Below, piece after piece: positions 1-9,514 of a stretch of 64,000 bases of DNA (positions within the stretch are counted from its first letter, which is position 1; each line of letters begins with the position of its first letter). The position numbers and the translations under genes are program-made. Source of the stretch: Gammaproteobacteria bacterium (lineage in GTDB: Bacteria > Pseudomonadota > Gammaproteobacteria > GCA-001735895); the NCBI GenBank assembly GCA_050295575.1, contig JBNKPX010000004.1:609-64608 (forward strand). Reading direction: 5' to 3'. The notes below the pieces were generated by a model that ran no database searches, had not been told where the DNA came from, and worked only from the letters and a program-made list of their open reading frames with translations.

Positions 1-1916
1 CTTGGGTCATAACGCAGGTTCTTTATTGTGCTGCTCGGGATACGGGTGCGCCCCCTGAACGATGTGGTTTCTGACGAAGAAGTACTCGATATTCTAACAC
101 CCACGCTGGTGTAGTCCTTGTCCATAAAAAATCCACGAATGGTATAGTCGCCAGAGATATAGATGTTATCAGTGGCATCTATCGCAGCAATGGCTGGTGT
201 CGTAGCGGTTGCAGCCGAAGCTTTAGTGGCCTCAATAGAGGATAGTGACAGGCTCACATAGATCTGACTAACGTCATCTATGAGGTAGGTTGAACCAGCG
301 AAAAAGTTAGTGCTTTTGCTGGTTCGATCTTCAGCCAGCTGGTAGATCTGGGCATTACTGAGACCTGTTTTGGATATTAATTCATCTAATGTTTCTACAC
401 CCTGAGCCTGTATAGCGTTGGTGGTAGTTAGCAGCGGTGAATTCCTGTGATCAAGCGTCAGGTTGAAGGATAATTTGTCAGTGTGACGATAGTTGGTAAT
501 GGCGGTGATATTGTTTAGATCATTATAGAACAGATCATAGTCAACGATTCCGTAGATAAAACCTCTCTTTGTACGGTACTGAAACTCAGTACCTATGGCC
601 TGTCTATCAGTGAGCCCGGCACTGTTCTGTTGAACCAGATAGTAATCCATATTGAATTCTTTGGAAAATTTAAGGCTTATGTCACCACCAAAAAATACAC
701 GATTAGTATCGATTGAGTCATAGGATGACTGAACCGGAAAACCGGTGAACAGGCTATATCCAAGATCAGGATTTGAAATGTCTTTGTAGACAAACCCATC
801 AAAACGACCCAATACTCCTTTTGCGGTACGACTTTGACGTCCACCGATGATCTGGTATTCACCCACATTATTGATGTAATTCACCATGGCTCGACTGATT
901 CTGGCCTGGTTATCACTGTCCAGAAAATCACTGACGATACCGCCATCGAACCTTAGAACCAGAGAGTCTGTATCCGTTTTTCTACGGGCGAACAGGTTGA
1001 TATCACTGACCAGAGCATTATTGACTTCTTCAGTACTTAGCGTATCTATAGCAAGGATATCATTTCGATAGTATTGAGAAGCAGAGCCCGACAGGTACCA
1101 GTCATCGGCGATGCCTTTGATTTTATCCTCGCTCATGCGTTTCCTGGGTTCGGCGCGCATGGTCTTAAGGCCTTGAAGACGGTTTTCGATTTTCGGAGCT
1201 CTTTCACTATCCGGGTAGAGCGCTAGAAATTTACTGTATACGGCGATAGCCTGAGGGATTTTCTGCTGTCTTTCCCGTGCAATACCGGAGTATTCCAGCG
1301 CCTGCTGTTGCTGTTCCAGATTGCCTATTTCAGCTACCTTTCCCGCTATCGCGAGCACTCGGCGGTAATTTCCATCGAGAAATTTCTGCTTGGCATCCTG
1401 CAGTAATTTCTCTGCAAGCTTTTCTTTTTTTGTGGCTGGTGGTCGTTTGAGATCAGGTTTAGTAGCACGTACTGCAGGAATGGGTGCCTTGACTGTTGCT
1501 GCAGGTTGCACAGCTCGTGGTTTTGTTTGTAATAGTTGTGACGTCAGAATGGATATTTCGGTTTTGCTACGGAAGTTTATCCAGGCACTAGGATAAGATT
1601 GTTTCAGCTTTTGCAGCTGATTATTGGCATCCTTTTGCGTGGGGTAGTTTCCCATTACGAGACGGTAGTAGGTTTTAGTATTCACCTCGACCATGTTTAG
1701 ATAAACCAGCTCATTGCTATCACGGGCCATGCCTTTAAGATCGTTTTTGGGTATTTTTCTGCCTGATGATGAAAGGTTTATGGAGTAGCTGTGGATAGTA
1801 CTTATCTGTGCTGGCTTAGAATAAATTGTATCCACGCCTAGATATTCGCTCTTTGCCGCGAATAACAGGTTTGGGATCAATACCAGCAAATATAGGTAAT
1901 TCTTTAAATAAGGCAT
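1..1916 (-). CDS. Outer-membrane protein: signal peptide + SPOR-like domain + TPR-like segment + beta-barrel region (C-terminus lies outside the window)
   Basis: Absent from the supplied track because it has no stop codon in the window. The minus-strand frame is open from the ATG at 1916-1914 to position 1 (638 codons). The N-terminus MPYLKNYLYLLVLIPNLLFAA looks like a signal peptide. YSINLSSS...YYRLVMGNYPTQKDANNQLQKLKQSYPSAWI resembles a SPOR fold. LLQDAKQKFLDGNYRRVL...AVYSKFLALYPDSERAP is TPR-like. The remainder shows alternating aromatic/polar strand patterns typical of OM barrels. Confidence 0.6.
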   Translation of the reverse strand, partial: MPYLKNYLYLLVLIPNLLFAAKSEYLGVDTIYSKPAQISTIHSYSINLSSSGRKIPKNDLKGMARDSNELVYLNMVEVNTKTYYRLVMGNYPTQKDANNQLQKLKQSYPSAWINFRSKTEISILTSQLLQTKPRAVQPAATVKAPIPAVRATKPDLKRPPATKKEKLAEKLLQDAKQKFLDGNYRRVLAIAGKVAEIGNLEQQQQALEYSGIARERQQKIPQAIAVYSKFLALYPDSERAPKIENRLQGLKTMRAEPRKRMSEDKIKGIADDWYLSGSASQYYRNDILAIDTLSTEEVNNALVSDINLFARRKTDTDSLVLRFDGGIVSDFLDSDNQARISRAMVNYINNVGEYQIIGGRQSRTAKGVLGRFDGFVYKDISNPDLGYSLFTGFPVQSSYDSIDTNRVFFGGDISLKFSKEFNMDYYLVQQNSAGLTDRQAIGTEFQYRTKRGFIYGIVDYDLFYNDLNNITAITNYRHTDKLSFNLTLDHRNSPLLTTTNAIQAQGVETLDELISKTGLSNAQIYQLAEDRTSKSTNFFAGSTYLIDDVSQIYVSLSLSSIEATKASAATATTPAIAAIDATDNIYISGDYTIRGFFMDKDYTSVGVRISSTSSSETTSFRGRTRIPSSTIKNLRYDP

Positions 1917-1987: not shown

Positions 1988-3166
1988 TTATCGATCCCAA
2001 TCAGAGTCTGTAACCCTATGGTGAGAACTATCCTGGTGGCAGGAGCCACTACAATCAGCATTTTCTGCCACAGTCTCGTAGCCACCACTACCATTCTCAT
2101 GTTCTCTCTGGTCATAATCTCCATCATGACAGGCCGCACATTGTGGTGCATAAGCTGTATTCCATGATGGTATTTCATTGTTGCTGCCGTGGCAGTCGAT
2201 GCAGGCTGCATTATCATGCCGTCCCCCAGTTGGAACATTTGAGCTACTATGCACATATGGTTTTGCAGTCCAGTTAACCGTGGTATGACAGACGTCACAG
2301 GCTTCAGTAGTAACGAAATGACCTGTTGACTGTCCTGTTGCCGACACACCATTGTGGCAACTTTCACAGGGTTCTCCTCCCACATCCGCATGACTCCATG
2401 TGCTGTTAGACCAACTGACAGTGGTGTGGCAATTCTCACACTCCAGGATGGTTAGCATATGGGTTGAGTGTTTTCCTTGTGCCAGAATACCATTATGACA
2501 GCTGGAACAATTTCCAATGACGGAGATATGATCAACTTTATACACAGGGTCAAAAGTAATGGTTGTGTGGCAATCTTCGCAGCTGTCGGTAGAAAGAATA
2601 TGATTGGTATTTTTAGGGGTTGCTATCACACCATTGTGGCAGAGCTGACAGTTACCGGTAATCCCTTCGTGATCAAACACGGCATCATGCCAGGAATTTG
2701 TACGATGACAGTTATCGCAGACATCACTACTTTCGATGTGTCCCGGGTGTTTACCGACCGCGACTATGCCATTATGGCAGCTTTGACATTCCCCAGTGAC
2801 GGCAAAGTGGTCAACCCTGGCGACGTTTTCCCAGTTGCCGGTCTGGTGACAAAACTCACAGTCATTGGTGGTTCTCATGTGTTTGGCTGAAGGTGCGCTG
2901 GCCTGGATACGCCCCGAGTTAGAATGGCAACCACTACACTGGGTAGGGGTCCCTCTAAAAACGCCCTGGATATGGCAGGAATCGCATTTTTCTCTGGCAT
3001 GTACGATATCTAACGGGAAGTTAGTTTCATCGTGATCAAATTTCGCAGCATTAGCGGTATTGAACATACCTGTAGACAAAAACAACGAAAGCAGTATAAA
3101 GGATAAAAGATTTAGCCAGTTTTTGCGCAAACCAGTGATATTTGTTTTAGCTATATTCATTATCAT
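1988..3166 (-). CDS. Multiheme cytochrome c (13 CxxCH + 1 CxxxCH), doubled-CXXCH repeat type, secreted
   Basis: I counted 13 CxxCH motifs plus a C-terminal CSGSCH. The module C.SCHNG..A.GK..H......C..CH.T..W recurs. The N-terminus has a hydrophobic signal sequence ending in ANA-AK. Confidence 0.9.
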   Translation of the reverse strand: MIMNIAKTNITGLRKNWLNLLSFILLSLFLSTGMFNTANAAKFDHDETNFPLDIVHAREKCDSCHIQGVFRGTPTQCSGCHSNSGRIQASAPSAKHMRTTNDCEFCHQTGNWENVARVDHFAVTGECQSCHNGIVAVGKHPGHIESSDVCDNCHRTNSWHDAVFDHEGITGNCQLCHNGVIATPKNTNHILSTDSCEDCHTTITFDPVYKVDHISVIGNCSSCHNGILAQGKHSTHMLTILECENCHTTVSWSNSTWSHADVGGEPCESCHNGVSATGQSTGHFVTTEACDVCHTTVNWTAKPYVHSSSNVPTGGRHDNAACIDCHGSNNEIPSWNTAYAPQCAACHDGDYDQREHENGSGGYETVAENADCSGSCHQDSSHHRVTDSDWDR

Positions 3167-3184: not shown

Positions 3185-4768
3185 TTAACTTCCAAATCTT
3201 CGGCTATTTATGTCGATTTCCTGGAAGTCATCGATGGAATGGCAGTCATCACAGTAAGGGCCAAAGTTTCCTTCGTGTATATCGTCCCGGTTGTGGCAGT
3301 CGATACAACGGCTTTTCATTTTTCTGTCTTTTTCCAGTGGCTTGAAATGGCAGGCGTGGCAATGCAGCCCTTCATGTGCACCTCTAATCTTGAAGTCGGT
3401 TTCGTCATGATCAAATTCCCAGATCAGCCAGTCGTTGGGGTTATGGCACAGTTTGCAATCATCACCGAAAGCTTTTTCATGTACATCGTCTTCACGATGG
3501 CAATTTATACACTCAGACTTGGCATCCTTAAATTCGGATGTCAAATGACAGGATTCACAACCAACGACGGCATGCTGGCCAATCAGGGGGAAATTAGTCA
3601 GTTCGTGATCGAAGCGAACGTCTTCCATCCACCATGATTTGTCATTATGACAGTTATTACATTTCTTACCCTGTTGTTCCTTATGAGCATCTTGATGTTT
3701 ATGACAGCTGTAACAGGCTTTGTCGGTTTTTTTACCTTTCTGATCGGACTGATGACAGGATTGGCAGCTGGCTTTTTTATGTGCACCCTTTAATGGGAAA
3801 TCCGTCTTTTTATTATGATCAAAGCTGGAGTCTAGCCAACTGGTTTCGTTATGACATTGATCGCATTTTTTCTTATTTTTACCTTTATGCACATCATCCA
3901 GTCGATGGCAGCTATAACAGTTTCGAGTTGTTTTTTTACCCTTAGGCTTTTTCTTTTTACTGTCGGCTACGGTATGGCAGGTATGACAGGTGGTCGCTTT
4001 ATGCTTACCCTTCAATTTGAAGTCCGTATCCTGGTCATGGTCAAATTTTGTCTTATCCCACTTTTTCTCTGTGTGGCAACTCTGACATTTTTTACCGAAT
4101 CGATTTTGGTGCACATCCTTGATGGCGTGGCATGAGACACATTTTTTAGGGGTGTCTTTGTACTGGTTTTCAACGTGGCATAGGTCGCAGGCTACTTTTT
4201 TATGTGCATGTTTTAACTTGAAGTCTGTCTTGTCATGGTCAAACTGCTCACTACTCCAGCCTTTGGGGTTGTGACAGCTGTCACATTTTTTTCCAAGATT
4301 GGTTTCATGGGCATCATCCTCTTCATGACAGGAAAAGCACTTATGTGGAGCCTCTCTATATTTTTTTTCTTCTTTATGACAGCTTGAGCACTCTGCCTGT
4401 GTATGCTTGCCTTCAAGCGGGTAATCGGTCGATTTATGATTAAAACGGTCCTTATCCAGCCATATGATGCTGGCATCTCTACCCTTATGTTCGGTATGAC
4501 AGACCCTGCACTCAACGCCAATGACCTGTTTATTTAAGCCATGAAAACCATGCTTTGAGTTTACATCGTCTGCTACCTCTTCATGGCAATCCAGGCAAAG
4601 TTGTCGCTGAGTCGTTTCCTGTAATCGGACATGACAACTTTCACATTTTAATTCATATTCTGCATGCCCTTCTATGACCTTGCCGGGCATGAATAGCTTT
4701 TCAAAGTCCATAGCCTGCGCCATTTGTGGTAGCAGGGTTATAAAAAACAACGTGAGTAATAACTTCAT
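3185..4768 (-). CDS. 21-heme cytochrome c built from seven triheme (cytochrome c7-like) modules, secreted, very Lys-rich
   Basis: I counted 21 CxxCH motifs. The unit FDH..TDF.L.G.H...C..CH...C..CH...D.H....G..C..CH recurs seven times. Signal peptide is MKLLLTLFFITLLPQMAQA. The start lies 3 nt after the stop of the upstream membrane-protein gene. Confidence 0.9.
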   Translation of the reverse strand: MKLLLTLFFITLLPQMAQAMDFEKLFMPGKVIEGHAEYELKCESCHVRLQETTQRQLCLDCHEEVADDVNSKHGFHGLNKQVIGVECRVCHTEHKGRDASIIWLDKDRFNHKSTDYPLEGKHTQAECSSCHKEEKKYREAPHKCFSCHEEDDAHETNLGKKCDSCHNPKGWSSEQFDHDKTDFKLKHAHKKVACDLCHVENQYKDTPKKCVSCHAIKDVHQNRFGKKCQSCHTEKKWDKTKFDHDQDTDFKLKGKHKATTCHTCHTVADSKKKKPKGKKTTRNCYSCHRLDDVHKGKNKKKCDQCHNETSWLDSSFDHNKKTDFPLKGAHKKASCQSCHQSDQKGKKTDKACYSCHKHQDAHKEQQGKKCNNCHNDKSWWMEDVRFDHELTNFPLIGQHAVVGCESCHLTSEFKDAKSECINCHREDDVHEKAFGDDCKLCHNPNDWLIWEFDHDETDFKIRGAHEGLHCHACHFKPLEKDRKMKSRCIDCHNRDDIHEGNFGPYCDDCHSIDDFQEIDINSRRFGS

Positions 4769-4771
4769 AGA

Positions 4772-5563
4772 CTAATAAAAATGAACGACTACAACGTGGG
4801 TTATACCAGATAGTACCAGCATGATGAAAAGTGGAAAATGCAGAATGTGCCAATAAGAGAATAGTATCTCATTAATACCCAGAGTGCAGATTGAGCGCAG
4901 CCCCCAGGCTCGATCCAGAAAGTTTCTGCGATCATCAGAAGGCTTATATTCGTTCAGTATCCTGGCTTTTAACTTTTTCAGCTTCCGGCGGTTTGAAATG
5001 TAAAACCAGAGAGATCGGTTTATCCCCGTATGCTGGACCACAAGATCGTCTTCAATTTTTTTCAACTCGGCAGAGAGTTCAGGGGTTTGCTGAGTAATAA
5101 CCTCGAATTCATGGGTTTCATTGTCAAAACTACGGTACAGGTCTTTAAAGCGAATTTTTCCACCATATAATCCATAGTGTATTCTACGATACAGGTAGCG
5201 GCCAATGAGCCCACTAGATGCAACAATAAGCATGCAGGTAAAGGCGACTGTGCCGTTTAGAGAACCCAGTCGGTAGCCAGAATGATAGATGATCAGTACG
5301 GGACCAAGGATGCCCAGAATCATGTGAAAACGAAACCAGAACTTTATAGAGCCAAGAAAGGTCCAGTTAGATTTCTGCTTTCGCAACGGGTAAACAAGCA
5401 GCAGCAGCATCATAGACCCGCCGATAATACCGAGCCAGTAACCAATGCCAGTTTCAGCCACAAAGTAATGATGGTCGGAGATTGTCCAGCCAAAATAGAT
5501 AACGGCTACTACACTGATGTACCAGAGTAGTGCAAGAGTATTAAGTGCGAATCGTATAACCAT
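4772..5563 (-). CDS. Integral membrane protein, candidate di-heme cytochrome b (ferric-reductase-like / cytochrome-b-like helix pair)
   Basis: About 5 hydrophobic helices. His80/His94 (FHMILGILGPVLIIYH) and His242/His256 (HFPLFIMLVLSGITH) are each spaced 14 residues apart on two helices, which is the classic bis-His two-heme spacing. A ~95-aa charged loop separates helices 4 and 5. Confidence 0.55.
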   Translation of the reverse strand: MVIRFALNTLALLWYISVVAVIYFGWTISDHHYFVAETGIGYWLGIIGGSMMLLLLVYPLRKQKSNWTFLGSIKFWFRFHMILGILGPVLIIYHSGYRLGSLNGTVAFTCMLIVASSGLIGRYLYRRIHYGLYGGKIRFKDLYRSFDNETHEFEVITQQTPELSAELKKIEDDLVVQHTGINRSLWFYISNRRKLKKLKARILNEYKPSDDRRNFLDRAWGLRSICTLGINEILFSYWHILHFPLFIMLVLSGITHVVVVHFY

Positions 5564-5707
5564 GAATTCAATAAATAATGTTAATATAGGTTTAGCTTTT
5601 TTAATATATCAGATATGTGACTTTTATTGGGAATATATTACCATTTTTATGATAAAGTTCGCTTAAACAAACCTCTAACTTTACCACGGATTAACCCCTG
5701 ATTTCTC

Positions 5708-7009
5708 ATGGACACTATCTATTATTTTGTCCCTTTTATTCTATTCTTTCTTGGATATGTCTGGAGGGCGCATCGTCGTCAGCGACTGAACGAATTTGTT
5801 CGTCAGGAAGCTATTGAAACTGGCCTGGCTGAGCCTGCATCCTTACATCCCATTATTGATCGAAATAAATGCATAGGCTGTAAGTCCTGCGTTTATGTTT
5901 GCCCGCAGCAGCTTGGACATAACGTATTAGGCATCTTTCATGGCAAGGCTGAGTTACTTGAGCCTGCTAACTGCATAGGCCATGGTGCCTGTAAGAAGGT
6001 TTGCCCTGAAAATGCAATTACTCTTGTTTTTGGTACAGAGAAACGAGGTGTTGATATTCCCCTGGTCGATGATGACTTCGAAACCAATGTCAAAGGTATC
6101 TACATTGCGGGTGAATTGGGTGGTATGGGGCTGATCCGTAACGCTATCGAGCAGGGTAAGTCGGCGATGAAGTCAATTATTTCGTCCTTGCCAAAAAGTA
6201 GCAGTCATCAATATCAGGTGATCATAGTTGGAGCCGGCCCCGCAGGGCTTGCTTCTACGCTGGCTGCACAGGAGGCGAATCTAAAATACCTTGCTCTGGA
6301 TCAGGATTCTCTCGGCGGTACTGTTTTTCAGTACCCCAGAGGTAAAATTGTTATGACCCAGCCGGTCGACTTACCTATGGTTGGTAAGATGCATTTCAAG
6401 GAAACAACCAAGGAGGAGTTACTGGAATTCTGGCAAGGTGTTGAGCAAAAGACGGGTATTAAGGTTAGTTACCATGAGATTGTAGCTGGTGTAGAGACTT
6501 TGAATGGAGGGTTTAAGGTTAAGACTAACAAAGGTGAATATGAAACAGATACTGTGCTTCTCGCCATAGGTAGACGAGGTACTCCGCGTAAACTCGGTAT
6601 TCCTGGCGAGGAATTACCCAAGGTTGTGTATCGCCTGATTGACCCAGCACAGTATGCAAATCAAAAGGTTATGATAGTCGGGGGAGGTGATTCTGCCCTG
6701 GAAGCCGCATTAGCCATCGCTGATGAAGAAGGTAGTGAGGTTTCAATCTCCTACCGTAGTAATAGCTTTTCGCGTGCTAAAGCCAAAAATCGTGAACGGA
6801 TAGACAGCTATGCCAGTGAAGGAAAGATTACACTTTATCTCAGTTCAACCCCTAAGGAAGTCACTGAGCACAGTATTATTCTGAAATCAAATGATCAGGA
6901 TATAGAAGTTCCAAATGATGCTGTGATTATTAATGCAGGCGGCATCTTGCCAACGGGGTTTCTGAAACAGATTGGTATAGAAGTAGAGACCAAATTTGGA
7001 ACAGTTTAA
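5708..7009 (+). CDS. Membrane-anchored ferredoxin-domain / FAD-NAD(P)-binding pyridine nucleotide-disulfide-type oxidoreductase
   Basis: N-terminal TM helix followed by RAHRRQR. Fe-S motifs CIGCKSCVYVCP and CIGHGACKKVCP. Dinucleotide folds VIIVGAGPAGL and VMIVGGGDSALEAA. Transcribed divergently from the cytochrome operon. Confidence 0.8.
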   Translation: MDTIYYFVPFILFFLGYVWRAHRRQRLNEFVRQEAIETGLAEPASLHPIIDRNKCIGCKSCVYVCPQQLGHNVLGIFHGKAELLEPANCIGHGACKKVCPENAITLVFGTEKRGVDIPLVDDDFETNVKGIYIAGELGGMGLIRNAIEQGKSAMKSIISSLPKSSSHQYQVIIVGAGPAGLASTLAAQEANLKYLALDQDSLGGTVFQYPRGKIVMTQPVDLPMVGKMHFKETTKEELLEFWQGVEQKTGIKVSYHEIVAGVETLNGGFKVKTNKGEYETDTVLLAIGRRGTPRKLGIPGEELPKVVYRLIDPAQYANQKVMIVGGGDSALEAALAIADEEGSEVSISYRSNSFSRAKAKNRERIDSYASEGKITLYLSSTPKEVTEHSIILKSNDQDIEVPNDAVIINAGGILPTGFLKQIGIEVETKFGTV

Positions 7010-8985
7010 TGATTGACTTAAAGATATTAATAATTGCTTTTAGCCTGATTTTTATAATTACCCCGCCGTTACAGGCAGATAGTAAGCAGCAACTACAGGA
7101 TATTAGCCGATCGATACGTATCAGAGATTACAGCAAGGCTGTCAAGCAGCTGCAACCCCTGATCAGATCTGGTGATTCTGAAGCTCAATTCTTACTGGCA
7201 GGCCTGTACCGCTCAGGTAAAGGGGTGAAAAAGGATCTGGATAAAGCGATACAGCTGTATGAAAAATCCTCTAATAATGGGCATGCAGATGCTCAATATA
7301 CCCTGGCTTCCTTACTGGAAAAAAAGGGGGATATGACTCAGGCGTTATTCTGGTATCAGCAGGCTTCAGAGCAGGGGCATAGAAAAGCCCGGAAAAAACT
7401 GAAATCTGCCCAGAAGACTAGTGGATCATTTTGCAATAAAGATATTAATGCGGATGCCATATTTAGCTCGATTGTTCATAATGACATCAAGTTCATTCAA
7501 TCCTGTGTTGAGAATGGCTATAACTTTAATATTCAGGATAAGTCTTCTCGTTCACCACTTATAGCTGCTTTGCTAGCAGAGCATAAAGAGATTGCTGATC
7601 TATTGTTACCGGTTACACAAAACCTGAAACATGGTGACCAAAATAAGAATCAGGCTATTCATGTTGCCGCTTCAAACGGCTTTGCAGATATTGTTAAAAA
7701 GTTGCTCGATAAGAAAGTGGATATCAATGCACAGGATAACCTGGGCAATACACCGCTGTTAATTGCCGTGCGTCATGATGATGCGAAGCTAGCCCGCCTA
7801 CTTTTACAGAATAAAGCCAGTTACAGTTTACAAAATAAAAGAAAGGTTTCTGCCATAGAGTTGGCGCAAACCAGAGCTGATTCAGGCGTGTTAAAGGCTT
7901 TTTCCAGCCAGGGAATTAAGGTTGGTAAAAATGAGGATCAATATAACGATGTCAGTATTAAGGATTTTGAGAAATCTATAAAACAGTCGTCATCATTATA
8001 TAAAGGCTGGCCTATTTTAAGTATTGCCAGCCTGCTGGGTGAGAATGATATAGCCCGGCAATTGCTTAAACAGGGCGCTAAGGTTAATGCGGTGGATAGT
8101 TCTGGCTACGCTGCCCTGCATAGAGCGAGCGCTAAAGATCAGGTTAAAACAGTAGACCTGTTGCTTGCCTCCGGTGCGCTAATCAATAGTCAGAATAACA
8201 AAGATGAAACGCCTCTGTTTTTAGCTGCTGAAGCGGGTAGTTATAAAACGGTTAAGCGCTTACTTGAAAAAGGAGCTGATCCAACAATATTATCAGCGAA
8301 TAAAACGAGTGCTTTAGCTGTTGCCATAGCTAATCAGCGTAAGGATGTCGCCTTGTTGCTGGCTGAAAAAGAGCTGGATAATGATTCTATACACCTGGCA
8401 CTTTTCCTGGCTATCCAAAAAGATATGGAAGAGGTAGCTGTCAAGCTGGTAAAGCGTGATGCATTAATCAATGATGTGGATGGTAATAAACGTAGTGTTC
8501 TCTGGTTCAGTGCTGACAAGGGACTGGAAAAGATTACTGCCGCCTTATTATTAAATAAGTCTGTAGATATTGATCAGAAAGATGTAAAGGGTTACAGCCC
8601 TCTGGCCCGGTCAATTTTAAGGGGGCATAGTGTAGTTTCTAAATTATTAATTGGGGTTGGGGCGGATGTTAATACTCGAACGGCGGAAAAAAACACCCTG
8701 TTGATGCAATCGGTTCTATCAGGCAAAAAGGAAATGACAAAATTGCTTATCGATAAAAAAATCAATATAGATGCTAAAAATAACTCTGGTGAAACGGCCC
8801 TGATGTTAGCGGCGGGGGCAGGTAATAATGATCTGGTAGAAATACTGATTGAGGCGGGTGCTGATATACAGACAAGAAATCAGGATGACCTCAGTGCCTA
8901 TGAAATTGCATTAAATGCTGGAAAAAAAGATACCGCTGAGTTAATTCGTAATAAAAGCGGCAGGCTTTTTAAGCTGTTTAATTAG
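7009..8985 (+). CDS. Secreted Sel1-repeat + multi-ankyrin-repeat protein
   Basis: Signal peptide ending PPLQA-DS. Sel1-like AQFLLAGLYRSGKGVKKDLDKAIQLYEKSS and AQYTLASLL. Many ankyrin units (GNTPLLIAVRHDDAKLARLLL, ETPLFLAAEAGSYKTVKRLLEKGAD and others). The start overlaps the upstream stop (TAATG). Confidence 0.85.
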   Translation: MIDLKILIIAFSLIFIITPPLQADSKQQLQDISRSIRIRDYSKAVKQLQPLIRSGDSEAQFLLAGLYRSGKGVKKDLDKAIQLYEKSSNNGHADAQYTLASLLEKKGDMTQALFWYQQASEQGHRKARKKLKSAQKTSGSFCNKDINADAIFSSIVHNDIKFIQSCVENGYNFNIQDKSSRSPLIAALLAEHKEIADLLLPVTQNLKHGDQNKNQAIHVAASNGFADIVKKLLDKKVDINAQDNLGNTPLLIAVRHDDAKLARLLLQNKASYSLQNKRKVSAIELAQTRADSGVLKAFSSQGIKVGKNEDQYNDVSIKDFEKSIKQSSSLYKGWPILSIASLLGENDIARQLLKQGAKVNAVDSSGYAALHRASAKDQVKTVDLLLASGALINSQNNKDETPLFLAAEAGSYKTVKRLLEKGADPTILSANKTSALAVAIANQRKDVALLLAEKELDNDSIHLALFLAIQKDMEEVAVKLVKRDALINDVDGNKRSVLWFSADKGLEKITAALLLNKSVDIDQKDVKGYSPLARSILRGHSVVSKLLIGVGADVNTRTAEKNTLLMQSVLSGKKEMTKLLIDKKINIDAKNNSGETALMLAAGAGNNDLVEILIEAGADIQTRNQDDLSAYEIALNAGKKDTAELIRNKSGRLFKLFN

Positions 8986-9043: not shown

Positions 9044-9514
9044 GTGGGTAATAGTCGACGCCAGCAATTGATCAGAGCGCTTAAGTTTTCAGTGCTGCTG
9101 GCATCGATATTTATTGCTTTTGTATTTATTGATTTTTCTTTTAATCAGCCGAAATTAGATAAGGAATATCGTTTTGAGGTTCCTGATTTAATCGATAATC
9201 AACCAGTAATACTGAATCAGGGATCTATGATTATTGTTGTCGCTCATTATAATAGCGATATAAGTGATCAGTTCTCTGCAAAACCTGCAAGCGCATCGCG
9301 CATCGATTCAGCAGGGTATTTTGTGGCACTGGCTTATGGGACAGATTTAGGTTGCCCTGTTCAGCTGGCCGAGGATCATTTTAAAGAAAGCTGTAGCCAG
9401 GCTATGTATGATTTACTCGGACAATCATTAGATCAGAATTCTTTTAAGAATCTTGAAATACCTCATTACCGTTGGAATAAAAACTTTTCTGCTTTAACCA
9501 TTTATCAGGAGTAA
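9044..9514 (+). CDS. Membrane-anchored Rieske-fold-like protein lacking the 2Fe-2S ligands (hypothetical)
   Basis: GTG start. N-terminal SRRQQL plus a hydrophobic helix resembles a Rieske Tat-type anchor. GTDLGCPV and ESCSQAMYDLLG align by eye with CTHLGC and CPCHGS.YD, but the Cys/His cluster ligands are replaced. Confidence 0.45.
   Translation: MGNSRRQQLIRALKFSVLLASIFIAFVFIDFSFNQPKLDKEYRFEVPDLIDNQPVILNQGSMIIVVAHYNSDISDQFSAKPASASRIDSAGYFVALAYGTDLGCPVQLAEDHFKESCSQAMYDLLGQSLDQNSFKNLEIPHYRWNKNFSALTIYQE

Follow-up and report, generated by a model that had tools for sequence, protein, structure and literature searches.

Our analyses suggest that a divergent gene pair near the beginning of the stretch studied here (the window: 64,000 nucleotides of contig JBNKPX010000004.1, assembly GCA_050295575.1, from a gammaproteobacterium) is the inner-membrane end of a trans-envelope porin-cytochrome conduit, and that the cluster around it matches the PCC3 type of He et al. 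2017 (PMC5566968). One gene of the pair, at 4772-5563 on the minus strand, encodes an inner-membrane protein of 263 amino acids, which we describe as a putative di-heme b transmembrane electron carrier, and the other, at 5708-7009 on the plus strand, encodes a membrane-anchored iron-sulfur flavoprotein of 433 amino acids; both coordinates and the divergent arrangement were confirmed among the open reading frames (ORFs) of the window. The new element is the second protein: judged by their gene content, PCC3 conduits carry a conserved anchored and permuted ferredoxin-flavoprotein, and often also a periplasmic Sel1/ankyrin protein. Because the membrane protein is almost always encoded beside this anchored flavoprotein, the electrons of the conduit may come from cytoplasmic NAD(P)H and not from quinones. 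An earlier reading of the same DNA, the original prediction, had described the pair as a split input module resembling NADPH oxidases (NOX); its observations were confirmed and its interpretation is partly supported, in that the split logic of flavoprotein, iron-sulfur protein and di-heme protein survives the two refutation tests that could be computed, conservation of the histidines in homologs and co-occurrence of the two genes, whereas homology to NOX or ferric reductases was not detected. That prediction had missed that the downstream genes, together with a porin candidate, appear to make up a complete trans-envelope porin-cytochrome cluster.

The linkage of the two genes was followed from both sides. 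Among GTDB species-representative genomes, 484 stretches encode a relative of the membrane protein (the scan used the closer alignment A1, the distant-relative alignment A3 being too diverse), and 80 of these loci were fetched, of which the 58 with at least 5 kb of upstream sequence were used to count the flavoprotein. It is encoded beside the membrane protein in 56 of the 58, with a partial match in a 57th, and its gene is divergent in 54 of those loci, at a median start-to-start distance of 492 bp. A homolog of the 21-heme cytochrome gene lies directly downstream of the membrane-protein gene in 75 of 76 genome loci. The hosts belong to Gammaproteobacteria (Woeseiaceae, Steroidobacteraceae, Thiodiazotropha, Paraglaciecola, and Methylococcaceae, locus L042), Alphaproteobacteria (Roseovarius, Hyphomicrobiaceae, Phenylobacterium), and Betaproteobacteria (Methylotenera, loci L066, L068, and L069), and the flanking genes are unrelated across the three classes. 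A single strand encodes flavoprotein, ankyrin protein, membrane protein, and cytochromes in loci L036, L148, and L150. The reciprocal search, with the flavoprotein motifs IAGELGGM and ANCIGHGA as the starting point, gave more than 591 metagenome loci, and the membrane protein and a cytochrome were found in 44 of the 47 with enough upstream sequence. The genes thus co-occur as the original prediction had expected.

He et al. 2017 described the PCC3 inner-membrane protein as about 300 amino acids long, with five transmembrane (TM) helices, of which TM4 bears SGXXG and TM3 and TM5 each bear WX3HX13H; they compared it with the FRD domain of the FRE/NOX proteins and with cytochrome b, predicted two hemes b, and proposed a quinone-active role (PMC5566968). 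The 263-residue protein bears all of these marks, including the five helices, S117GxxG121, and both Wx3Hx13H motifs. The rest of the cluster agrees as well: the 21 CXXCH motifs of the first cytochrome fit the PCC3 periplasmic multiheme cytochrome (published counts of 21, 24, or 27; median of 21 in PMC5566968), the 13-14 hemes of the second fall within the published range of 10-35 or more although its median is 34, and the porin position is occupied by an ORF of more than 638 amino acids with a signal peptide, whose homologs have 680-704 residues and in which SPOR and TPR segments alone are recognized. Homologous clusters in Methylotenera (L066, L068, L069) and Methylococcaceae (L042) come from taxa named as PCC3 carriers (PMC5566968). 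The di-heme, ferric-reductase-like character of the membrane protein is therefore prior art, in the form of a published hypothesis. As to the flavoprotein, the words thioredoxin, FAD, 4Fe-4S, ankyrin, and pyridine nucleotide are all absent from the text of He et al. 2017 (PMC5566968), and among the top-ranked results of a full-text literature search none joins "PCC3" with flavoprotein, thioredoxin reductase, 4Fe-4S, or ankyrin. Later work retains the four-gene definition of PCC3 and stresses that its function is untested. In the related PCC4 clusters, a gene for an iron-sulfur protein adjoins that of the membrane protein (He et al. 2017, PMC5566968), which fits a general pairing of such membrane proteins with iron-sulfur partners. 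Two further reports, on an extracellular electron transfer cluster of Methylobacter (PMC13322032) and on Woeseiaceae (PMC12175321), concern Mtr/Mto-type clusters and not the type found in the window.

The two proteins of the divergent pair

The membrane protein has five predicted membrane helices and, between TM4 and TM5, a helical loop of about 100 residues, as seen from hydropathy and from the secondary structure of an AlphaFold2 (AF2) model that is all-helical, with a predicted local distance difference test (pLDDT) score of 80.9. TM3 (5279-5347, minus strand) carries W76-x3-H80-x13-H94, with the codons of H80 at 5324-5326 and of H94 at 5282-5284; TM4 carries S117-G118-x-x-G121 (5201-5215, minus strand); and TM5 (4778-4867, minus strand) carries W238-H239-x2-H242-x13-H256-x4-H261, with H242 at 4838-4840 and H256 at 4796-4798. 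The two histidine pairs spaced 14 apart, on which the original prediction had been built, are thus borne out by the positions of the histidines in the protein (31, 32, 80, 94, 129, 151, 178, 239, 242, 256, and 261), and the segment YPLRK...FWFRFHMILG...YH, which had been singled out as well, is present. Conservation was counted over 270 aligned relatives, 149 of which represent clusters at 50% identity. All 270 have H80 and H94, and 263 have H242 and H256, the remainder being gaps or truncations; W76 is kept in 265 and W238 in 263, and S117, G118, and G121 are invariant (270/270). The histidines outside the motifs, H31, H32, H151, and H178, vary among the same relatives and serve as an internal control; because the motif histidines are kept while these vary, the pattern has been selected and did not arise by chance. 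Three further histidines, H129 (5177-5179), H239 (4847-4849), and H261 (4781-4783), are conserved in 257-262 of the 270, beyond the four that two hemes require.

Loops rich in Arg and Lys lie at residues 59-74 and 122-136; by the positive-inside rule, these would be cytoplasmic, so that H80 and H242 would lie close to the cytoplasm and H94 and H256 close to the periplasm, and the TM4-TM5 loop (residues 126-232) probably faces the cytoplasm. The family is large, with 2345 related clusters at 50% identity. Some relatives (P0146, P0193, P0161, and P0189) reach 430-690 amino acids through N-terminal extensions, either Ala/Pro/Lys-rich and of low complexity or with TPR or SPOR segments, which may be merged gene calls or true fusions. 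A Rosetta-stone fusion of membrane protein and flavoprotein was sought among the longer homologs and none was found, their extensions being TPR, SPOR, low-complexity, or unrecognizable.

The membrane protein matches no family of Pfam or NCBIfam. When 39 diverse relatives were scanned singly, the recurrent Pfam matches, all below threshold, were to families of two-heme cytochromes b only: DUF4405 (PF14358) was matched by 14 of the 39 (best E 0.0017), Ni_hydr_CYTB by seven, and PepSY_TM and Ferric_reduct were matched also, the 263-residue protein itself matching none of them. For the ten relatives checked individually, the best DUF4405 score was 16.7 bits against a cut-off of 26.7. DUF4405 has been purified with heme b bound and is described as arranged like MsrQ and the PepSY-type proteins (PMC11334425). 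Together with the conserved pairs, these matches make di-heme b binding by the 263-residue protein a well motivated prediction. The original prediction had gone further and likened the protein to ferric-reductase-type TM domains, and no homology of this kind could be shown. PF01794 is not matched by the 263-residue protein even at E<=1, and is matched by only two of the 39 relatives, at E 1.3-5.4; alignment by hhalign to E. coli-type MsrQ gave a probability of 0.3%, with a template that is near-invariant (MsrQ sequences all at least 77% identical) and so a poor profile; and a Foldseek search of the PDB with the AF2 model gave nothing below E 0.7 (best E 0.74), with no NOX, STEAP, or FRD chain in the best 50 listed. 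TM3 and TM5 do carry bis-His pairs with a spacing of about 13 residues, a feature common to unrelated cytochromes b, and the six TM helices of the ferric-reductase domain are not matched, five being predicted here. Membership in the ferric-reductase/NOX domain family is accordingly not demonstrated by these comparisons.

The flavoprotein scores 157.3 bits with Pyr_redox_3 (cut-off 30), 95.3 with Pyr_redox_2 (26.1), and 40.6 with Fer4_10 (25.5), and its architecture is as the original prediction had outlined. At the N terminus, a hydrophobic helix of about residues 5-21, followed by RAHRRQR, forms the predicted membrane anchor (5720-5770, plus strand); a hydrophobic stretch and then a basic one recur in 66 of 68 reconstructed homologs although the residues themselves drift, the other two having short predicted N termini, possibly from the choice of start codon. 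The anchor would leave the remainder of the protein in the cytoplasm. A two-cluster ferredoxin domain follows (5846-6031, plus strand), with the motifs C55-x2-C58-x2-C61-x3-C65-P and C89-x2-H92-x2-C95-x3-C99-P. H92 (codon 5981-5983), which replaces the second Cys of the second motif, is conserved in 68 of 69 sequences, implying that the second cluster would be a His-ligated [4Fe-4S] or a [3Fe-4S] cluster, and this cluster may be the exit toward heme. Next come the relocated C-terminal FAD-binding strand-helix unit of the thioredoxin reductase (TrxR) fold (6059-6202, plus strand), with GIYIAGELGG at residues 130-139, of which G135-E-L-G-G139 is invariant in 69 of 69 sequences, and the FAD and NAD(P)H Rossmann domains (6203-7006, plus strand), in which GAGPAG (175-180) and GGGDSA (325-330) are invariant in the 69 homologs. 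Past the second Rossmann motif, Y349, R350, and R356 are conserved residues that recall the HRRxxxR motif of E. coli TrxR and, by this analogy, suggest NADPH as the cofactor.

All seven Cys of the protein lie within the ferredoxin motifs (residues 55-99) and there is no redox-active Cys pair; without a redox-active disulfide, it is neither a thioredoxin reductase nor a disulfide reductase. With its FAD and NAD(P)H motifs intact and Cys only in the ferredoxin domain, it is best described as a predicted electron-transfer enzyme. It scores 87.5 bits for TIGR01292 (cut-off 343), the CxxC of low-Mr TrxB being absent, and 179.1 bits for the YpdA equivalog TIGR04018 (cut-off 339.9).

The order of the dinucleotide-binding motifs, GIYIAGELGG before GAGPAGL, had been called permuted in the original prediction, and alignment to the YpdA/Bdr structure 7a76 shows that the flavoprotein is circularly permuted. 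In native order, residues 170-431 align to template residues 5-274 with 93.1 bits, and a weak alignment joins residues 120-139 to template residues 279-298, the C-terminal FAD motif. When the canonical order was rebuilt (residues 166-431, then 118-165), a single collinear alignment to residues 5-298 scored 107.7 bits, whereas a control with the moved piece reversed scored 93.0 bits and ended at about residue 275. With six other templates, TrxR and TrxR-type ferredoxin-NADP+ reductases, the rearranged order gained 9-15 bits over the native one. The AF2 model (mean pLDDT 68.6, the Rossmann parts being good and the ferredoxin domain poor) finds YpdA, TrxR, and TrxR-type ferredoxin-NADP+ reductases by Foldseek at E 1e-20 to 1e-13, with 7a76 at E 4.6e-20. 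Since homology of the pair to NOX or ferric reductases was not detectable and the flavoprotein has a TrxR fold instead of an FNR-type dehydrogenase, the term NOX-like would here denote an analogy of logic only.

Other genes of the cluster

The two genes head two operons that lie back to back, separated by an AT-rich spacer of 144 bp (5564-5707), in which a promoter scan gave one promoter-like match that is not above chance level. On the minus strand, the gene of the membrane protein is followed by those of two cytochromes c, with 21 and 13-14 hemes respectively, and of a porin candidate. The first cytochrome (3185-4768, 527 amino acids), whose gene starts 3 nucleotides past the stop of the membrane-protein gene, is predicted to be periplasmic, with a signal peptide and 21 CXXCH motifs in seven c7-type triheme modules. 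The second (1988-3166, 392 amino acids) has a signal peptide, 13 CXXCH motifs, and one CX4CH motif at a spacing of about 23 residues; it matches the Pfam families Cytochrome_C7 and c3 and, weakly, the DmsE family (38 bits against a cut-off of 192), and would correspond to what is called the extracellular multiheme cytochrome in PCC3. The porin candidate starts at position 1916 and its frame exits the window at its edge (1-1916, minus strand), leaving 638 residues visible, with a signal peptide, a SPOR-like segment, and TPR. The full-length homologs, of 704 (L001, 13647-15761) and 680 amino acids (L003, 13886-15928), match only SPOR and TPR_6, homologs occupy the same cluster position in most loci, and the long C-terminal region is taken to be a beta-barrel, presumably. 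The SPOR-like, peptidoglycan-binding segment and the TPR stand ahead of this presumed barrel, a feature that porins of the MtrB/PioB type do not have.

On the plus strand, the flavoprotein gene is followed by one for a protein of 658 amino acids (7009-8985) that has a signal peptide and contains Sel1 repeats and numerous ankyrin repeats; the start of this gene overlaps the flavoprotein stop by one base (ATGA), and the two are translationally coupled. Among metagenome loci, 33 of 45 have it after the flavoprotein gene, as do most genome loci, and its product may be a scaffold or chaperone of the 21-heme cytochrome. Ankyrin proteins are unusual in a cluster for periplasmic electron transfer. The next ORF (9044-9514, plus strand) encodes 156 amino acids, matches no Pfam family, and has a single hydrophobic helix at the N terminus; the closest relative alone has a counterpart (L001, 6032-6532), which the cluster of 60% identity (L003) lacks.

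In some other lineages, additional genes are found between or beside the pair. Three alphaproteobacterial clusters (L048, 3523-7535; L062, 3662-7831; and L073, 3384-7625) hold what appear by eye to be genes similar to those of cytochrome c maturation between the flavoprotein and the membrane protein, namely an ORF of the size of CcmF (645-662 amino acids), one of about 160 amino acids with LRCxVCQNQ(S/T)(I/L)DDS as in CcmH, and a TPR protein of about 400. Elsewhere, an ORF of about 295 amino acids with one N-terminal TM helix and a TPR-like segment, GWLLLAKSY, reminiscent of CcmI/NrfG, immediately precedes the membrane-protein gene on its strand (for example L052, 7042-7929, and L035, 6985-7884); it was found in 34 of 163 loci by tblastn and is absent from the lineage of the window.

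Proposed electron path and competing explanations

From the observed anatomy, conservation, permutation, and gene linkage, we infer a path that assigns heme binding, a contact between the two proteins, a cofactor, a direction of flow, and an acceptor. NAD(P)H, probably in the form of NADPH, would give up a hydride to the FAD of the anchored flavoprotein, and single electrons would pass from there over the two iron-sulfur clusters, the second being His-ligated or 3Fe, to a heme on the cytoplasmic side of the membrane protein. This protein would hold two b hemes between TM3 and TM5, the cytoplasmic-side heme bound by H80 and H242 and the periplasmic-side heme by H94 and H256, and the two hemes would make a wire some 20 A long through the membrane. 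The periplasmic-side heme would hand electrons to the 21-heme cytochrome, which would span the periplasm, and this in turn to the 13-14-heme cytochrome at the outer-membrane porin and to an extracellular acceptor. The anchor helix of the flavoprotein and the long conserved loop of the membrane protein might provide the contact, and one may speculate that five helices and the anchor add up to the six of FRD domains. Outward flow would be exergonic and would run along the membrane potential, so that the system could serve as an NAD(P)H:extracellular-acceptor reductase or an electron valve, which disposes of or delivers reducing power and is not a form of proton-pumping respiration. We regard such a direct, flavoprotein-fed path from NAD(P)H to the conduit as the best explanation of the data, and hold it with about as much doubt as conviction.

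A broader form of the proposal, in which PCC3 in general is a quinone-independent NAD(P)H:extracellular-acceptor oxidoreductase, a two-membrane "bacterial NOX" in which the anchor helix perhaps completes a six-helix bundle, is put forward more tentatively, as a possibility that may well prove wrong. PCC3 would then be no quinone-linked iron oxidase; the flavoprotein would dock on a new five-helix family of di-heme cytochromes b, and the two would push electrons along the 21-heme periplasmic wire to the cell surface. If this reading were true, the system could be used for reductive acquisition of Fe or Mn, for redox balancing, or for making extracellular superoxide, in hundreds of aerobic or facultative Proteobacteria.

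Several points weigh against the direct path. The membrane protein has no family match above threshold; a profile of 39 relatives, run against all PDB sequences, gave spurious matches to coiled coils and BRIL fusions, to the cytoplasmic loop only; and a Foldseek search with its AF2 model brought no significant match among solved heme proteins, a negative that is weak evidence because cofactor-free, all-helical membrane models are hard cases. In the flavoprotein, the AF2 confidence of the ferredoxin domain is low (below 50). Three to four loci are without one partner in the sequence at hand; at least one of these exceptions is a rearranged cluster, since L098 keeps the porin homolog and L099 and L115 show the same order of flavoprotein, ankyrin, and reversed porin genes. 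The linkage of the genes would speak for a shared function and not for direct electron transfer, and a quinone step could intervene. Finally, the published model treats PCC3 as a system of electron uptake and Fe(II) oxidation (PMC5566968), which an NAD(P)H partner fits poorly.

The main competitor is the published, quinone-coupled view of PCC3, in which the membrane protein is a di-heme cytochrome b active with quinol or quinone that joins the quinone pool to the periplasmic cytochromes; the flavoprotein would then be an accessory, or would act much like an NDH-2-type NAD(P)H dehydrogenase, supplying the local quinone pool and having no direct contact with the hemes. This view was proposed by analogy with the cytochromes b of bc1 and of [NiFe]-hydrogenase (PMC5566968), and the weak matches of seven of the 39 relatives to Ni_hydr_CYTB, a quinone-reactive family, are in keeping with it; a quinone site is compatible with the present data. 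It leaves unexplained, however, why the flavoprotein should be linked to the membrane protein in 56 of 58 genomes and 44 of 47 metagenome loci across three proteobacterial classes. Moreover, NDH-2-type enzymes have no need of a ferredoxin domain, no quinone-site motif was identified, and the conserved loop of residues 126-232, if cytoplasmic as it seems to be, resembles a docking surface. On balance, we consider this explanation rather unlikely, while taking it as the one to beat.

A second alternative retains the wiring and reverses the current: electrons given up outside the cell, for instance by Fe(II), minerals, cathodes, or partner cells, would pass through the cytochromes and the di-heme protein to the flavoprotein, which would reduce NAD(P)+ without reverse transport through bc1 and complex I. 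TrxR-type ferredoxin-NADP+ reductases are reversible, which counts for this direction, as does the occurrence of PCC3 in Fe(II) oxidizers and chemolithoautotrophic symbionts (PMC5566968). Against it, the reaction would be uphill for donors of the Fe(II) type and opposed by the membrane potential, with no energy-coupling element visible, and many hosts are heterotrophs (e.g. Paraglaciecola, Roseovarius, and Steroidobacteraceae). In addition, both PCC3 clusters of Sideroxydans ES-1 are downregulated on Fe(II), transcript data that do not fit the proposed role of PCC3 as an iron oxidase (PMC8788666). Inward flow thus seems improbable to us.

The gene pair might also stand outside the working electron path, as a device for the maturation or maintenance of very large cytochromes, by reduction of apocytochrome thiols or handling of heme. 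The TrxR fold of the flavoprotein would suit such a role, as would the ccm-like genes that lie between the two genes in Alphaproteobacteria and the CcmI-like TPR gene found there in many others. However, the 433-residue protein is without a redox-active Cys pair, the distant relatives of the membrane protein are without conserved Cys, and what is conserved instead are His pairs at heme-ligand spacing, so that we give this role very little credence. A thiol relay like DsbD/CcdA is ruled out by the lack of CxxC in the flavoprotein and of conserved Cys in those distant relatives. That the membrane protein is not a cytochrome at all, its conserved His binding another metal, or that it is a channel or transporter, is likewise a far-fetched proposition, for although homology to solved heme proteins was not detected and seven His are conserved where two hemes need four, the two H-x13-H pairs stand on two helices at matching membrane depth, each after W-x3, which is the known arrangement of a bis-His di-heme cytochrome b (PMC5566968), and the gene lies in an operon with multiheme cytochromes, a 21-heme homolog being next to it in 75 of 76 loci.

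PCC3 clusters are widespread and encode some of the largest known cytochromes, and their function has been open since 2017; a conserved flavoprotein of NAD(P)H type in the cluster shifts the working model from quinone-coupled uptake toward a path coupled to the cytoplasm. If this is true, it would be a new route in Gram-negative bacteria from a cytoplasmic reductant to the outside that bypasses the quinone pool, and two unannotated families would be defined, a five-helix di-heme b protein and a permuted ferredoxin-flavoprotein of TrxR fold.

Relation to known systems

The closest counterparts are the PCC3 clusters of Sideroxydans lithotrophicus ES-1 (Slit_0867-0870 and Slit_1446-1449), which have the same gene content of an inner-membrane protein, a 21-heme cytochrome, a second multiheme cytochrome, and a porin, for which the window has the porin candidate. 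The distribution is also alike, across Alpha-, Beta-, and Gammaproteobacteria including Methylotenera and Methylococcaceae. On the other hand, PCC3 was published as four quinone-coupled genes, to which the present clusters add the iron-sulfur flavoprotein and, less strictly, the Sel1/ankyrin protein, and the second cytochrome of the window is small, with 13-14 hemes against a published median of 34. The MtrCAB-CymA system of Shewanella and the MtoAB-CymA/MtoD system likewise conduct electrons across the envelope by way of a porin, multiheme cytochromes, and a point of entry in the inner membrane, but their entry point is a quinol dehydrogenase of the NapC/NirT family, of which the proteins of the window are not members (the DmsE/MtrA match reaches 38 bits against 192).

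Hmc and Tmc of sulfate reducers combine a multiheme cytochrome c in the periplasm with a cytochrome b in the membrane and an iron-sulfur protein in the cytoplasm, in a path for which quinone is optional. The same three kinds of component would carry electrons across the membrane in the system of the window, although the components are unrelated (similarity to HmcA reaches 30.5 bits against a cut-off of 400), the cytoplasmic subunit of Hmc and Tmc is HdrD-like without a flavin or NAD(P)H site, and neither Hmc nor Tmc has an outer-membrane porin. DUF4405, the PepSY-type proteins (FoxB), and FezC are cytochromes b with which the membrane protein can also be compared, being small bacterial membrane proteins with four central His, demonstrated heme b, and electron transfer across the cytoplasmic membrane (PMC11334425); they differ in having six TM helices and, as partners, flavinylated extracytosolic proteins or siderophores in place of cytochromes c or an NAD(P)H flavoprotein.

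With NOX and ferric reductases, the gene pair would share a logic, in which electrons pass from NAD(P)H to FAD, to a stack of two b hemes, which His pairs on TM3 and TM5 hold in place, and to an acceptor across the membrane, and the H-x13-H spacing is the same. No sequence, profile, or fold similarity is detectable, and the membrane protein of the pair has five TM helices where these enzymes have six; the flavoprotein is of TrxR type, with two dinucleotide-binding domains in permuted order, an iron-sulfur domain is interposed, the parts are separate polypeptides, and the acceptor would be a chain of multiheme cytochromes and not O2 or Fe(III) directly. A split system of this kind exists in E. 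coli, where MsrQ (YedZ) and the cytosolic flavin reductase Fre make up a two-component NOX-like system; msrQ is annotated as "membrane-bound flavocytochrome". Here, too, a heme b membrane protein is fed from NAD(P)H through a separate flavoprotein and passes electrons to a periplasmic partner. MsrQ, however, is a true member of PF01794, whereas the 263-residue protein is not, Fre is soluble, without iron-sulfur clusters, and not genetically linked, and the periplasmic partner of MsrQ is a molybdoenzyme and not a set of cytochromes.

For the flavoprotein alone, the best matches in sequence and fold are YpdA/Bdr and the TrxR-type ferredoxin-NADP+ reductases (7a76, 7a7b, 3lzw, and 5ygq), which have in common with the 433-residue protein a two-Rossmann fold for FAD and NAD(P)H without a CxxC disulfide; relative to YpdA/Bdr, the 433-residue protein is a permuted version of this fold, joined to a membrane anchor and a two-cluster ferredoxin domain.

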